Source: Myxococcales bacterium
GTDB lineage: Bacteria; Myxococcota; Myxococcia; Myxococcales; Anaeromyxobacteraceae
Direction of reading: 5' to 3'
DNA length: 39,673 nucleotides
NCBI GenBank assembly: GCA_038320275.1
Contig: JBBQEB010000013.1
Coordinates: forward strand, 1-39,673
Made by a program: the position numbers and the translations under genes
Shown here: piece by piece, positions 11,192 to 38,058 of the stretch
Layout of the letters: each line of letters starts with the position of its first letter
Numbering within the stretch: the first letter of the stretch is position 1
The notes under the pieces: generated by a model
Seen by the model: only the letters and a program-made list of their open reading frames with translations
The model's database searches: none
Told to the model about the DNA's origin: nothing

Positions 11192-11196
11192 ATGAG

Positions 11197-11270
11197 CGCG
11201 CCCTACTGGATTTGAACCAGTGGCCTTCGGATTCGTAGTCCGACGCTCTATCCAACTGAGCTAAGGGCGC
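11197..11270 (-). tRNA. tRNA-Arg(ACG), CCA not encoded
   Basis: GCGCCCTTAGCTCAGTTGGATAGAGCGTCGGACTACGAATCCGAAGGCCACTGGTTCAAATCCAGTAGGGCGCG. Confidence 0.97.
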
Positions 11271-11290
11271 AATCTGTCGTCCTGCGATAC

Positions 11291-11382
11291 TGGCGGAAAG
11301 GGAGGGATTCGAACCCTCGAACCAGGTTACCCCAGTTACTGGTTTAGCAAACCAGCGCCTTCGGCCTCTCGGCCACCTTTCC
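11291..11382 (-). tRNA. tRNA-Ser(GCT)
   Basis: GGAAAGGTGGCCGAGAGGCCGAAGGCGCTGGTTTGCTAAACCAG, long variable arm, GAGGGTTCGAATCCCTCCCTTTCCGCCA. Confidence 0.97.
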
Positions 11383-11486
11383 AAGACCCTGCGCTGCCGC
11401 CGCTTCGAACCCTGCCGCTGCCTGCCTGGCCCCCGCCGCGAGGCCCTCGTGCCGGCTCTTCGCCCTGCTTCCACGTCGCTTCCACC

Positions 11487-11576
11487 TGGCGGAGGAGGAA
11501 GGATTCGAACCTTCGGAGGGCTTTCACCCTCTGCGGTTTTCAAGACCGCCGCCTTCAGCCGCTCGGCCACTCCTCC
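11487..11576 (-). tRNA. tRNA-Ser(TGA)
   Basis: GGAGGAGTGGCCGAGCGGCTGAAGGCGGCGGTCTTGAAAACCGC, long variable arm, GAAGGTTCGAATCCTTCCTCCTCCGCCA. Confidence 0.97.
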
Positions 11577-31111: not shown

Positions 31112-31606
31112 GTGCTCCTCAAGGAAACCGCGCTGGTCCGGCTGCTTGGCCTGCGCATCCCGGTGCTGCTCTTCCTCGGTCCCCGCGTGCTCGAGCTCGA
31201 CGACGCGGGCTGCGCGGTCTCCATCCCGCTCGGCTTCCGCTCCAAGAACCACCTCGGCTCGATGTACTTCGGTGCGCTCTGCGCCGGCGCCGATCTGGCC
31301 GGCGGCCTCAACGCCTTTCGCGCCATCCAGGCCGGCCACCGCGGCGTGAAGCTCGTCTTCAAGGACGTGCGAGCCGACTTCCTGAAGCGCGCCGACGGGG
31401 ACGTCGTCTTCCGCTCCCGGGACGGCGCCCGGGTGCGCGAGGCGGTGGAGCGGGCCGACGCCACCGGTGAGCGGGTGACGCTTCCGGTGGAGATCCTCGC
31501 CACCGTGCCCGCCAAGTACGGCGAGGAGCCGGTGGCGCGGTTCACGCTGGGCCTCTCCCTCAAGCGGCCTGCGGAGAAGGGCGCAGGGGAGGGTGACTCT
31601 CGCTAA
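31112..31606 (+). CDS. DUF4442 / hotdog-fold thioesterase-like protein
   Basis: SKNHLGSMYFGALCAGADLAGG, VFKDVRADFLKRADGDV. Confidence 0.85.
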   Translation: MLLKETALVRLLGLRIPVLLFLGPRVLELDDAGCAVSIPLGFRSKNHLGSMYFGALCAGADLAGGLNAFRAIQAGHRGVKLVFKDVRADFLKRADGDVVFRSRDGARVREAVERADATGERVTLPVEILATVPAKYGEEPVARFTLGLSLKRPAEKGAGEGDSR

Positions 31607-31615
31607 GGAATCTCC

Positions 31616-32932
31616 ATGCGCCTCCCAGTTCTCGCGCTCCTCCTGTCTGCCGCGCTGCCGGCCTTCGCCGCCGCGCCGTCCACCATCGAGGATGACTGGC
31701 CCCGCGCCCTCGCCGAGGCCAAGGCGAAGGACCTGCCCATCTTCGTCGACGCCTGGGCGCCCTGGTGACACACCTGCCGCTTCATGCGGGCGACGGTCCT
31801 CCCGGACGCGCGCCTGCAGAAGCACGCCGGACGGTCCGTCTGGCTCGCCATCGACACGGAGAACGCGAAGAACGCCGCCTTCCTGGGTCAGTTCCCGGTG
31901 GAGGTCTGGCCCACCTTCCTCATCATCGACCCGCGCGACGAGCGGGCGGTGCTGAACTGGCCGGGGAGCGCCTCGGTCGAGCAGCTCGACAAGCTCCTGG
32001 AGGACGGCGAGCGGAGGGAGCGCGGCGGGGCCGAGGCGCTCCTCGCTCGCGCCGACCAGGCCAACGCCGGCGGCAAGGTCGACGAGGCGCTCGCCGCCTA
32101 TCGTGAGGCGCTGGCGAAGGGCGGGCCAGCCTGGCCGCACCGCGCCCGCGCGGTGGAGTCGCTGGTGCTCCTCGCCTCCACGGGGCAGAAGCCGCGCGAC
32201 TGCGCCGAGATCGCCCGCAGCGAGGGCGCGCAGCTTCCGCGCGGCCCCTCCTTCGCCAACGTGGTAGCGACAGGCCTCTCCTGCGCCGTCGGGGTGCCCG
32301 CGGCAGCCGGATGGCGGAAGGAGGCCATCGCCGCCCTGGAGCCGCTCGCGAAGGAGGCGGTGGAGACGCCTGGGCTCCTCGCCGACGATCGCTCCGGCAT
32401 CTACGAGGCGCTGGCGGATGCGCGCGAGGCTGACGGCGACGCGCAAGGGGAGCGCAAGGTGGCGGAGCGCTGGTGGGCGTTCCTGGAGGCGGAGGGGAAG
32501 AAGGCACAGACCCCCGAGCAGCGCGCAGCGCTCGACACCGGCCGGGTGAACGCCGCGATGAAGCTGCACGACCCGGCGCGCGCGCTCCCGGCCCTCCAGC
32601 TCTCCGAGAAGGAGCTCCCCGGCGACTACAATCCGCCCGCGCGCGAGGCCTATCTCCTGCGCGAGCTGGGGCGCATCCCGGAGGCCCGGCAGGCCGCCTC
32701 GCGCGCGCTCGCACGCGCCTACGGCCCACGCAAGCTGCGCATCTACACGCTCGCGGTCGGCCTCGCCGAGAAGGCGGGAGACGGCGCCGGTTCGGCGAAG
32801 CTCCTCGACGAGGCGATCGCCTTCGCGGAGGGGCTCCCGCTCCAGCAGCGCGGCGAGCGCATCGATCGCGTGGTGGGGGACCTGCGCCGGAAGCGAGCCG
32901 CTCTGGCCGGACCGGCTCAGCGGATGCGGTAG
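31616..32932 (+). CDS. Exported thioredoxin-fold plus TPR protein with in-frame UGA (probable selenocysteine, UxxC)
   Basis: AAGGA RBS; ATG at 31616 gives MRLPVLALLLSAALPAFAAAPSTIEDDWPRALAEAKAKDLPIFVDAWAPW-TGA(31766-31768)-HTCRFMRATV, in frame with ORF 31784-32932; cis-Pro motif WPTF. Confidence 0.88.
31785..31818 (+). promoter_or_regulatory. Candidate bacterial SECIS hairpin
   Basis: Stem TGCGGGCG/CGCCTGCA with inner GTCC/GGAC, starting 16 nt after the UGA; exact fold uncertain. Confidence 0.55.
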
Positions 32933-34140
32933 CGGAGCAGCTTCACCTCCAGGGGGCCGTTCCACAGCTTGTGCGTGATCTCGGGCTTCACGTGCATGGC
33001 GCCCTCGAGCAGTGGGCTCCCGGACAGGAAGACCGCGTTCCAGCCATGGAAGCGCCCCATTGCCTCCGCGAGGCCGCGGTACATGCCCTGCAATTTCAGA
33101 TGGGCGGTGTGGGCCGGGCGGCGGTCGTCGGGATCCCTGGGCTTCTCGGGGCTCCGCTTGCCCTTTGCGCCGGGCCGGCGGCGCTCCTCTCCCTCACCCA
33201 TGAGCCGCTCGCCGTAGGGCGGGTTCATGCACAGCGTGCCCCGGATGAGCTCCGGGTCCGGCTGGAGCTCGCGCACGTCGCCCTTCTCGAAGCGGATGTC
33301 GCCGGCGACTCCCGCCGCGGCGGCGTTGCGCCGGGCCGCGTCGATGGCCTTGGCGAGGAGGTCGCGCGCGACGATGGGCGCTGGAGCGGCGTCGAGGGCG
33401 CTCCGCCGCGCTTCCTCCTTGAGGCGGTCCCAGCGCGACTGCCAGGTGCCGCGGTACTGCGGCCAGCGCTGGAAGCCGAACGGCCGCGACAGGCCGGGCG
33501 CGAGCTTGCGCGCGGCGAGCGCGTGCTCGATGGCGAGCGTGCCCGAGCCGCACATGGGGTCGATGAAGGGGCGGTCGTGCTCCACCTTGCCCAGGGAGAG
33601 CAGGGCCGCGGCGAGCGTCTCCTTGAGCGGTGCCGGCGTCTGCCCCGAGCGGTAACCGCGCCGGTGCAGCGGCTCGCCGGCGAGGTCGAGCGAGAGGTCG
33701 GCCGTGTCGCCCGCCAGGTGCAGCACGAGCCGCACGTCGGGGTCCTTGGGGTCGACGTCGGGGCGAGCGCCGAGCTTGTCGCGAAGGGCGTCCACCACCG
33801 CGTCCTTCACCTTGAGCGCGACGTACCCGGAGTGCGTCATGGCGGAGTCGCGGACGGTGGCCTCCACCGCCAAGGTCGTGCGCGCGGTGAGCCAGGGCGT
33901 CCAGTCCACCGATCGGACGCCGTCGTAGAGCGACGAGGCGTCGCCCGCCGGGAAGGTGGCGAGTGGCAGGAGGACGCGCATGGCGACGCGCGCGTGGAGG
34001 CAGGCGCGCATCCCGGCCTCGAGGTCGCCCTCGAAGGTGACGCCGCCGCGGTCGCCCCGCACCCCCCGCAACTTCAGGGCTGCCAGCTCCCGCCGCAGGG
34101 CCCCTTCGGTGCCCTTGGCGCACGTCGCGAAGAATTTCAT
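32917..34140 (-). CDS. THUMP-domain class I SAM-dependent rRNA methyltransferase (stand-alone RlmL-like)
   Basis: FFATCAKGTE, LHRRGYR, APLKETLAAA, DPMCGSGT, NPPYGERL. Confidence 0.92.
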   Translation of the reverse strand: MKFFATCAKGTEGALRRELAALKLRGVRGDRGGVTFEGDLEAGMRACLHARVAMRVLLPLATFPAGDASSLYDGVRSVDWTPWLTARTTLAVEATVRDSAMTHSGYVALKVKDAVVDALRDKLGARPDVDPKDPDVRLVLHLAGDTADLSLDLAGEPLHRRGYRSGQTPAPLKETLAAALLSLGKVEHDRPFIDPMCGSGTLAIEHALAARKLAPGLSRPFGFQRWPQYRGTWQSRWDRLKEEARRSALDAAPAPIVARDLLAKAIDAARRNAAAAGVAGDIRFEKGDVRELQPDPELIRGTLCMNPPYGERLMGEGEERRRPGAKGKRSPEKPRDPDDRRPAHTAHLKLQGMYRGLAEAMGRFHGWNAVFLSGSPLLEGAMHVKPEITHKLWNGPLEVKLLRYRIR

Positions 34141-34178: not shown

Positions 34179-35579
34179 ATGACCGTACCAGCCCCGACCC
34201 TGCGCGTGGACGATCCCTACACCGGTGAGCCCGCCTGCGAGCTCCCGCTCGCGAGCGAGGCCGACGCGATGCGGGCGGTGGATCGGGCTGCCGAGGCCCA
34301 GCGCGCCTGGGCGCGGGTGGCGGTGAACGAGCGCGCCGAGCTGGTGCACCGCTTCGTCGAGCGGCTCTCCGCCCGGCGCGAGGAGGTGGCGCAGGACATC
34401 AGCCGGCAGATGGGGAAGCCCGTCGCCGAGGCGCGCGGCGAGGTGGGGACGTGCGGCGCTCGCGCGAAGCACATGGCCTCCATCGCCGCGGAGGTGCTGG
34501 CGGACGAGCGGCTGCCGGAGAAGGCGGGCTTCACCCGCTTCGTCGCGCGCGCGCCGCTGGGCGTGGTGCTCGACGTGGCGCCCTGGAACTACCCGCTCCT
34601 CACCGCGGTGAACGTGGTGGCGCCGGCGGTGCTGGCGGGGAACGCGGTGGTGCTGAAGCCCGCCTCCCGCACGCCGTTGTGCGGGGAGCACTTCGCCCGC
34701 GCCTTCCGCGAGGCGGGCGCGCCGGAGGGGCTCGTGACGGCGCTCGTCGCGGGACACGACGTCGTGCGGAAGGTGCTGGCGCGGCCCGAGGTGGCGCTCG
34801 CCGCGCTCACCGGCTCCAACGGCGCCGGCCGCGAGGTCCACCGCGCGGCGGCCGAGCGCCTCCTGCCGGTCATCCTCGAGCTCGGAGGCAAGGACGCGGC
34901 CTACGTCGCCCCCGATGCCGATCTCGCCTTCGCGGTTCCGAACCTCGTGGAAGGCGCCTTCTACAACGCGGGGCAGAGCTGCTGCGGGGTGAAGCGCATC
35001 TACGTGCACGCGGACCTCCACGAGCGGTTCGTGGCGGCTGCCGTGGAGGCCGCGGCCGCATGGGTGCCGGGCGATCCCTCGGAGGAGGGCACCACCCTCG
35101 GGCCGCTCGCGACGCCGGAGGCGACCGGCGAGCTCGCGGCGCAGGTGGCCGGCGCGGTGAAACGGGGCGCGCGGGTCCTCACCGGCGGCGCGCCCACCTC
35201 GCTGGGCGGCCGCGGGCGCTTCTTCCAGCCCACCCTGGTGACGGACGTCCCGCGCGACGCGCCGCTCGCCCAGGACGAGAGCTTCGGCCCGGTGGCCATC
35301 GTGGAGCGCGTGCGCTCGGACGACGAGGCGGTCGCGAGGATGAACGACAGCCGCTACGGACTCTCGGCGTCGATCTGGACCGCCTCGGTGGAGCGCGCGT
35401 CGGGGCTCGGGCGAAGGGTGGAGGCCGGCACGGTCTTCATGAATCGCTGCGACTATCTCGATCCCGCGCTCCCCTGGGTGGGCTGGAAGGCGTCGGGACT
35501 GGGGCTCTCGCTCTCCCGCCACGGGCTCCTCGCCCTCACCCGGCCGAAGAGCTTTCACCTGCGCCTCGCGGCGCGGTGA
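34179..35579 (+). CDS. Aldehyde dehydrogenase family protein
   Basis: PWNYP, LTGS, LELGGKD, NAGQSCCG, ESFGP. Confidence 0.95.
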   Translation: MTVPAPTLRVDDPYTGEPACELPLASEADAMRAVDRAAEAQRAWARVAVNERAELVHRFVERLSARREEVAQDISRQMGKPVAEARGEVGTCGARAKHMASIAAEVLADERLPEKAGFTRFVARAPLGVVLDVAPWNYPLLTAVNVVAPAVLAGNAVVLKPASRTPLCGEHFARAFREAGAPEGLVTALVAGHDVVRKVLARPEVALAALTGSNGAGREVHRAAAERLLPVILELGGKDAAYVAPDADLAFAVPNLVEGAFYNAGQSCCGVKRIYVHADLHERFVAAAVEAAAAWVPGDPSEEGTTLGPLATPEATGELAAQVAGAVKRGARVLTGGAPTSLGGRGRFFQPTLVTDVPRDAPLAQDESFGPVAIVERVRSDDEAVARMNDSRYGLSASIWTASVERASGLGRRVEAGTVFMNRCDYLDPALPWVGWKASGLGLSLSRHGLLALTRPKSFHLRLAAR

Positions 35580-36936: not shown

Positions 36937-38058
36937 ATGCGCAAGGCCGTCCTGCTGCTCGCGTCGTTGGTCATCGGTTGCGGTAGCAGCGGCGGTACGG
37001 GCGGAGGCGGTGGAAACAATGTGGCCGACGGGGGGAGTGGCACCGACGGCGGGACCATCGGCGGCATGGACGGAGGCAGCGGCACGGACGGCGGGACCGT
37101 GGGTGGCACGGACGGAGGCAGCACCGGCGGTGGCGGCACGACCATCACCGCCCTCTGCCAGACCTCGCTGAGCTCGTTCCGCAACCTCTACACGACCTGC
37201 CTCCACGCGAACCCGGACTTCGTCAACGCCCTCTTCACGGATGGTTTCCTGAGCTGCAACACGACCTCCAAGGAGGTCACCTCCGGTCGCGTCGTCTACA
37301 ACGCGAGCCAGGGCGCCGCGTGCGCCAGCGCCCTCGCGTCGCTCACCTGCGCACAGTTCGGCTCGAGCTTGACGCCCGCGGCGTGCGCGACGGTGCTCAC
37401 GGGCACGGTGCAGACGGGGGGCACCTGCTACGAGGATGACGACTGCGCGGCGGGCACGTGCAGCGCGACGGCGAAAGCCTGTCCGGGAACGTGCCAGCCC
37501 CTCGCCCAGCTCGCCCAGAGCTGCGCATCCTTGACCTGTGCGGGCACGCTGACCTGCTCCGCCTCGCAGGTGTGCGTCGCCCCGTCGGCCGTGAACGGCG
37601 CCTGTCCCTGCCAGGACGGTCTCTGGTGCGATTCCTCCTCGGCGTCCCCCGGAACGTGCAAGGCCCCTCAGACGAGCGGCGCTTGCAACGCGACCAACGA
37701 CGGTCAGTGCGCGCTCGGAACCACCTGCGCGGGGACCGCTTCGCCGACCTGCATGCCGCTCGTCGGGCTCCAGGGCGATTGCTCGGCAGATGCCTCTCTC
37801 TGCGGGTTCGGATACACCTGCGACGTCGCGAGCCACAGGTGCGTGGGCTTCCCCAAGGTCGGCGAGGCGTGCGGCGCAACGAACCCCGTCTGCATCGGTG
37901 GCTTCTGTGACCTCGCGGGGACGCAAAAATGCGTCGCTTACAAGGATCTCGGAGCCGCCTGCTCGCTCCCCGCGGACTTCCTAGCCTGTGGCCTCGGAGC
38001 CAGCTGCGACGCGTCGACCTCCAAGTGCGTCGCCTCGGCGACGTGCCAGGCGCCGTAG
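36937..38058 (+). CDS. Cysteine-rich lipoprotein with GTDGG linker
   Basis: MRKAVLLLASLVIGC lipobox; repeated (G)TDGG; C-terminal Cys-rich repeats (GGTC...C...C, GEAC, GAAC). Confidence 0.85.
   Translation: MRKAVLLLASLVIGCGSSGGTGGGGGNNVADGGSGTDGGTIGGMDGGSGTDGGTVGGTDGGSTGGGGTTITALCQTSLSSFRNLYTTCLHANPDFVNALFTDGFLSCNTTSKEVTSGRVVYNASQGAACASALASLTCAQFGSSLTPAACATVLTGTVQTGGTCYEDDDCAAGTCSATAKACPGTCQPLAQLAQSCASLTCAGTLTCSASQVCVAPSAVNGACPCQDGLWCDSSSASPGTCKAPQTSGACNATNDGQCALGTTCAGTASPTCMPLVGLQGDCSADASLCGFGYTCDVASHRCVGFPKVGEACGATNPVCIGGFCDLAGTQKCVAYKDLGAACSLPADFLACGLGASCDASTSKCVASATCQAP

Follow-up and report, generated by a model that had tools for sequence, protein, structure and literature searches.

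The gene at positions 31616 to 32932 (+ strand) of the window, the whole stretch of 39,673 nucleotides of a Myxococcales bacterium analysed here, encodes, judged from its sequence, a genuine predicted selenoprotein, well supported and of a chemical kind already known. Its in-frame TGA lies at the position of the attacking Cys of a CxxC motif and is very likely read as selenocysteine (Sec). This assignment builds on the codon pattern among relatives, the selenium machinery, domain homology and fold, residue conservation, and a hairpin that tracks Sec, all obtained by computation. The Sec site is not new, since it was predicted in 2006 in the ortholog of Anaeromyxobacter dehalogenans. The features of the present variant are instead its predicted exported thioredoxin-TPR build and its off-consensus SECIS element.

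The reading frame consists of the following parts:

31605 to 31609, + strand: Shine-Dalgarno-like AAGGA, 6 nt 5' of the ATG, overlapping the TAA of the upstream DUF4442 gene
31616 to 32932, + strand: read-through coding sequence, from the ATG at 31616 to the TAG ending at 32932; 438 amino acids if the TGA is Sec
31766 to 31768, + strand: in-frame TGA (codon 51), putative Sec51, at the attacking position of CxxC

The frame contains this one TGA only. Translated with TGA as U, it reads PIFVDAWAPW-U-HTC, where W-U-H-T-C are residues 50-54, and Cys residues stand at positions 54, 196 and 223. An earlier note on this DNA had described a ribosome-binding site, a signal-like N-terminus and a thioredoxin lead-in running into a single TGA at codon 51, with read-through joining a 382-aa open reading frame. 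Both points are confirmed by sequence and translation, the table-11 frame 31784-32932 (382 aa, from Met57) being the in-frame tail of the 438-aa product. A sequence search at the locus gave no match to a sigma-70 promoter or a terminator, and no plasmid copy of the gene was found at E 1e-20.

Codon 51 was compared in two sets of loci. For the first, 60 relatives and the own genome were searched and 43 orthologous loci were read, the own locus included; 34 have TGA and 9 have TGC. All 31 loci from the own family carry TGA, and 6 of the 37 own-family genomes yielded no full ortholog with the query used. The second set comes from a scan of a genome collection that found 394 relatives, the best 80 of which have 56 TGA, 21 TGC and 3 TGT. 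Together this gives 90 TGA, 30 TGC, 3 TGT and no other codon in 123 loci; the two sets overlap, and the 123 loci correspond to 103 distinct 66-nt windows (71 Sec, 32 Cys). The suggestion that the TGA aligns with the attacking Cys of homologs thus holds at 123 of 123 loci. On this codon comparison the TGA is not a chance event, the same codon being TGA in relatives and otherwise always TGC or TGT. A recent nonsense mutation, unique among relatives that all have Cys, had been raised as a counter-possibility; it is contradicted by the conservation of the TGA across phyla, the TGA forms belonging by record titles to Anaeromyxobacteraceae, other Myxococcales, Acidobacteriota and Eisenbacteria. A misread TGC or TGG at 31766-31768 finds no support either, as the contigs aligned there show no other letter; they possibly stem from the source sample and are therefore not independent evidence.

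In the protein database, the best 120 of 898 matches fall into two halves: 60 are full-length CxxC proteins, and the other 60 are shorter and all start at the Met57 position, six codons past the TGA, some of them named 'hypothetical' or 'TPR repeat protein'. Gene callers do lose the N-terminal part, as the earlier note had anticipated. Among the best 150 cluster representatives, 98 cover the site (96 of them with Cys) and 52 lack it. A quick version of a tree, in which the Sec label of 11 truncated proteins was assigned without DNA, shows Sec and Cys forms interleaved, with 8 label changes, 2 of them forced by well-supported branches. Within the own genus, one Cys protein falls among the Sec forms, pointing to one or more reversions to Cys.

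The short database entries could also be taken at face value, in which case the UGA would mostly be a stop and the product a cytoplasmic TPR-only protein re-initiated at Met57. We consider this very unlikely. Met57 is shared by 91% of 159 rows, half of the best 120 matches begin there, and the SECIS loop is off-consensus (see below), all of which would fit a restart. Met57 is, however, conserved in the full-length Cys forms too, its AUG sits within the stem of the hairpin, and a start at this position drops the first half of the thioredoxin fold in the structural model. In addition, the signal-like N-terminus and the W-x-x-W lead-in are conserved, and in the TGA forms they lie in frame 5' of the TGA.

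Reading the TGA as Sec requires the corresponding machinery, and a genome without it would speak against the assignment. In the own genome, selA and selD are over cut-off, the latter with its own in-frame TGA, as are two tRNA-Sec genes; of selB, the first 50 codons are present, cut by a contig end and 88% identical to the SelB of a relative. Full selB is over cut-off in 25 of the 37 genomes searched. Among the TGA-bearing relatives, 31 of 34 have tRNA-Sec and the other 3 have selA; for the TGA-bearing Acidobacteriota and Eisenbacteria genomes the numbers are 3 of 5, with selA and selB in the other 2. All 39 TGA-bearing genomes tested carry at least one Sec-machinery gene. tRNA-Sec is also found in 8 of 9 Cys-form genomes, so the Cys form persists in genomes where Sec could be used. 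The SelB C-termini of 12 relatives are alike and presumably ordinary, as we judge by comparison with the canonical motif.

The two tRNA-Sec genes (G000:C231:1160-1254 and G000:C89:8313-8407) have UCA anticodons, are 83% alike over the matched stretch, and both seem to carry one extra A in the D-stem. The own genome is the only one with two copies among the 46 genomes with a match; the second copy may have arisen by duplication or have entered as a contaminant in binning (genome contamination 2.9%). The window itself has a tRNA cluster (Arg-ACG, Ser-GCT and Ser-TGA; 11196-11576, - strand). Because of the two tRNA-Sec-like genes, we also considered that a system of the tRNA-ReC (selC*) type might decode the UGA as Cys, which appears most improbable. 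Each of the two scores as tRNA-Sec and has G-CCA at its end, U73 being the Cys identity element of tRNA, and the other 45 of the 46 genomes are single-copy yet keep the TGA. What speaks for such a system is the presence of two tRNAs with UCA anticodons, together with the existence of SECIS-dependent UGA-to-Cys decoding as described in PMC13582414.

Other candidate Sec genes are present in the genome. Likely ones are G000:C59:11837, C46:21532, C5:47974, C2:10416, C7:10078 and C8:24230, which comprise a PrdB-like gene, a SelL-related gene, two BCP-type peroxiredoxins and two FdhA genes, the last two with Sec motifs as in the supplement of Zhang et al. 2006 (PMC1794560). The gene at G000:C10:15749 (- strand; locus L145:231-890) has an in-frame TGA in P-T-U-G-M-C and a canonical hairpin with GGUCU; its product, with a signal-like N-terminus, has no Pfam or NCBIfam match and is possibly a second uncatalogued UxxC selenoprotein. 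A rhodanese-domain gene at G000:C49:19204 (- strand; locus L144), another likely Sec gene, has C-K-N-P-H-U and a signal-like N-terminus, with weak matches, below cut-off, to the TsoB and LYCAU models. The selD gene (G000:C66:3216, - strand) has a hairpin with an off-consensus predicted loop (CCG). Three of nine read-through candidates checked (C148, C5-30816 and C203) have no family spanning the TGA and were excluded from the control set used below, in which C10-15749 was kept despite having no family match.

The protein encoded by the read-through frame has the following features:

31616 to 31669, + strand: predicted signal peptide of about 18 aa, with Arg, a Leu/Ala core and A-F-A, from a reading of the sequence and a hydropathy script
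31676 to 32017, + strand: thioredoxin-fold domain, about residues 21-134, with W-U-H-T-C and Pro99; PF13899, PF13098 and PF00085 over cut-off
31775 to 31777, + strand: Cys54, putative resolving Cys; C in 100 of 100 rows covering the position and in 96 of 98 in a second set
32030 to 32908, + strand: TPR-like helical repeat region, residues 139-431, from DSSP on the model, structure match and conservation
32201 to 32284, + strand: Cys196 and Cys223 on neighbouring helices, from conservation

The layout proposed earlier, a thioredoxin domain followed by a TPR-like scaffold with two more Cys residues, is borne out by Pfam, the model and conservation. The match to Pfam Thioredoxin_7 (E 5e-10) covers residues 24-106, on both sides of the TGA, and Thioredoxin_2 and Thioredoxin are also over cut-off. 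Pro99, which we take to be the position of the thioredoxin cis-Pro, is found in 144 of 145 rows, and the domain has a thioredoxin fold with UxxC and a Pro loop. Among 37 profile matches in the PDB, the best include 2kuc, a 'putative disulphide-isomerase' (E 3e-17), and DsbD chains (E 3e-9). The AlphaFold2 model, built with 93 sequences (pLDDT 94.3, pTM 0.91), shows the thioredoxin fold and then about 14 helices. With VIA-align, residues 21-134 match thioredoxins (Z ~15, rmsd 2.2 over 107 residues), and residues 135-437 match the TPR domain of LGN (Z 18.2, rmsd 5.1, 288 aligned).

Along the repeat, charged motifs are nearly invariant at several helix starts (D257-D258-R259, D307, D337-Y-N339, R343 and G370-P-R372). 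C196 and C223 are both C in 159 of 159 rows, and in 133 and 131, respectively, of 150 more distant rows; this conservation makes a structural C196-C223 disulfide likely. A few rare family members carry fusions, P0201 to a DsbA-like domain, P0181 to extra TPRs and P0220 to peptide deformylase, of which the latter two may be gene-calling artefacts.

The signal-like N-terminus indicates that the protein is very probably exported. Of the 43 orthologous loci, 41 encode a hydrophobic core at the N-terminus. A lipobox-like motif occurs in 5 of the 9 Cys loci and in none of the 34 Sec loci, and in 44 of 85 full-length representatives.

We now consider the RNA just downstream of the TGA, where two elements can be delineated:

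31776 to 31827, + strand: SECIS-like hairpin within the coding sequence, 11-62 nt from the U of UGA, from folding, covariation and the contrast of Sec and Cys forms
31799 to 31804, + strand: predicted apical loop, CUCCCG/UCCC, with no G at either of its two leading positions

The hairpin folds with -31.9 kcal/mol (z -4.94, 0 of 200 shuffles as good), and its loop lies about 30 nt past the codon, within the 16-37 nt expected of a stable hairpin just 3' of the UGA. Sec and Cys forms were scored against synonymous-codon shuffles, with a threshold of z < -1.65. The Sec forms have mean z values of -1.58 (17 of 32 below the threshold) and -2.07 (30 of 50), compared to +0.76 (0 of 9), -0.18 (2 of 15) and -0.16 (0 of 9) for the Cys forms. 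The first Cys set consists of 9 distant, lower-GC forms, but the contrast survived a repeat in which 15 Phe-type Cys forms comparable in GC were used. In an alignment of 32 Sec windows, the share of paired cells is 95.5%, versus 30-44% in slid controls, and pair 30-43 covaries (CG in 16 and GC in 13 of the 32); kinship of the sequences inflates both the covariation and the Sec/Cys contrasts, and these sequences also served to derive the structure. The Thr codon before the upper stem is ACG in 21 of 23 cases, compared to about half elsewhere.

Of two further possible marks of Sec, the first is weak and the second was rejected. GTC at the Val codon under the loop occurs in 66 of 71 Sec forms (~48% elsewhere) but also in 24 of 32 Cys forms, and so carries little weight. 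Phe at +5, with UUC pairing with GAAG, is found in 51 of 60 full-length Cys proteins as well, and several Acidobacteriota Sec forms have Ser there.

The bacterial SECIS model in Fig. 2 of PMC13188914 requires a G in the first two loop positions, and the present loop departs from it: in the computed folds, a G-first loop costs 16.5 kcal/mol here. Of 71 Sec forms (median cost 8.3), 13 can form such a loop for no more than 1 kcal/mol, a smaller share than among ordinary TGA stops (25 of 60). For the other candidate Sec genes of the genome, it comes at zero cost in 7 of 9, the exceptions being the PrdB-like gene (1.2) and selD (4.3). Since the predicted loop breaks the consensus, decoding of the UGA could be inefficient. 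G31-U32 at the base of the upper stem is invariant in the 32 aligned windows and could become exposed if three pairs open upon SelB binding.

What is new at the RNA level is thus a covarying hairpin 3' of the TGA that is stable in Sec but not in Cys forms and whose predicted loop has no consensus G; no account of this off-consensus hairpin of the family was found in the literature. PMC13188914 (2026) notes that certain putative SECIS elements of bacteria do not conform to the consensus and might constitute separate classes. It is tempting to combine these observations into an uncatalogued, cross-phylum family of exported Sec-thioredoxin-TPR proteins, whose UGA would be decoded via a distinct SECIS class; its loop would be led by pyrimidines and lack G, and the ordinary-looking SelB that serves the canonical G-loops of the cell would read it as well. 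We offer this complete picture tentatively, as a possibility somewhat less likely than not.

Turning to known systems, supplementary file 4 of Zhang et al. 2006 (PMC1794560) holds a 76-aa Sec 'Thioredoxin' entry, Anaeromyxobacter_dehalogenans_1. It reads as residues 47-122 of the A. dehalogenans ortholog in locus L031 and matches the protein of 31616-32932 at 50 of 76 positions, with the same Sec site, which makes the site an already published prediction. The entry is a short thioredoxin, whereas the L031 ortholog, at 437 aa, also has a TPR-like region and an N-terminus that resembles a signal peptide. The UxxC thioredoxin-fold rows in Table 1 of PMC13188914 are Trx PF00085, thiol:disulfide interchange PF13098, Trx7/PDZ NF041199 and TsoB NF045694. 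They share UxxC in a thioredoxin fold with the present protein, for which PF00085 and PF13098 are over cut-off; none of the 119 rows of that table names a TPR fusion ('TPR' has 0 occurrences in it). Neither this protein nor two Cys relatives reach the cut-off of any NCBIfam model, the score with TsoB NF045694 being 20.6 versus 805. The whole exported thioredoxin-TPR architecture with the invariant second Cys pair was not found in the literature, where subscription papers and bioRxiv supplements may hold more.

As to function, we favour a periplasmic disulfide reductase or isomerase that uses Sec and is recharged by DsbD-type proteins, which on balance is the probable reading. The proposed cycle is modelled on what is known of the thioredoxin family. 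With the hairpin (11-62 nt from the U of UGA) as guide, SelB and tRNA-Sec would decode the codon, and the signal peptide would export the chain (many Cys relatives being lipoprotein-like). The Sec51 selenolate would then attack a client disulfide, and Cys54 would resolve the mixed bond. The TPR-like arch, braced by a C196-C223 disulfide, may select the client via its conserved charged residues, and a DsbD/CcdA-type membrane protein would finally re-reduce the enzyme. The DsbD C-terminal (gamma) domain and Thioredoxin_7/DsbH-like periplasmic reductases are among the best profile matches of the catalytic domain; unlike them, the family has no membrane domain and has a 300-residue repeat that they lack.

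The domain order suggests another option, namely that the same selenoprotein is a periplasmic CnoX-like chaperedoxin, in which envelope proteins that are unfolded or oxidised would be held by the TPR part, and their Cys residues protected or repaired by the UxxC motif. CnoX/YbbN (3qou and 3qdn, Foldseek ranks 1-2) also has a thioredoxin and then a TPR domain, and CnoX unites holdase and redox roles (PMC8129009). The match is domain-wise only, however, with a Foldseek TM of 0.20-0.22 and an rmsd of 23 over the full length, and there is no YbbN chain among the 37 PDB profile matches. CnoX has ~285 aa, with SxxC in E. coli, and binds GroEL through its conserved last C-terminal helix (PMC8129009; 10.1101/2022.05.03.490446). 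The present family has ~440 aa, U/CxxC and a longer repeat with a Cys pair, and the C-termini of 43 orthologs vary freely, no position beyond residue 400 being conserved at 85% or more, so that a counterpart of the GroEL-binding helix is not seen. CnoX acts in the cytoplasm with GroEL/DnaK, whereas this family has the signal-like N-terminus and, in part, the lipobox-like motif described above. The conserved charged residues along the repeat, moreover, would fit the binding of a specific ligand better than a generic holdase role. We therefore regard the chaperedoxin option as unlikely.

A reductase or isomerase is also, by a modest preference, the redox role that we assign over others, the main competitor being that the same selenoprotein introduces disulfides, as a DsbA-like oxidase or a dedicated partner of one envelope complex. 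In favour of this role, the host encodes very Cys-rich exported proteins. The P0201 fusion to a DsbA-like domain also speaks for it, as it does for the reductase/isomerase reading, but is a single sequence. The sequence matches of the protein are, however, thioredoxins and DsbD domains, not DsbA. The own genome has two DsbD_TM genes and five DsbA-like/Thioredoxin_4 matches, the latter meaning that the redox direction is not fixed by context; no DsbB match was found in this genome, which is 91% complete, so that absence is not thereby shown. Overall, an oxidase role seems rather improbable to us.

The surroundings of the gene were compared over the 123 loci. Its immediate neighbours are:

31112 to 31606, + strand: upstream DUF4442 (hotdog-fold) gene, PF14539, 9 nt away; near the gene in 17 of 123 loci
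32917 to 34140, - strand: convergent RlmL-like THUMP methyltransferase gene, from Pfam, overlapping the 3' end by 16 nt; in 22 of 123 loci

The DUF4442 gene is probably co-transcribed with the selenoprotein gene, as a lineage-limited neighbour. The RlmL-like gene is ordinary, as is the aldehyde dehydrogenase gene that follows (34179-35579, + strand). The 28 largest neighbour clusters are lineage-specific, none extending beyond 22 loci, and no thiol-redox partner is a conserved neighbour among them, so that the surroundings offer no clue to function. The protein at 36937-38058 (+ strand), with 373 aa, lipoprotein-like and rich in Gly and Cys, had been put forward in the earlier note as a local substrate; this idea gains no support, as the protein has no Pfam match and is not a recurring neighbour in the 123 loci.

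The present assignment corrects a systematic annotation gap, in that half of the best database matches are without active site and signal peptide, for a family that is covered by no curated model. By this assignment, the envelope of Myxococcota, Acidobacteriota and Eisenbacteria would contain a Sec enzyme from a family whose Sec and Cys forms are interleaved on the tree. With 71 distinct natural off-consensus examples, covariation and canonical controls in the same genome, the family makes the question of distinct SECIS classes directly testable. If the proposal of a distinct class is true, the family would be a natural test case for the tolerance of SelB and the ranking of off-consensus elements, and also for a selenium-based route of disulfide repair in the bacterial envelope.
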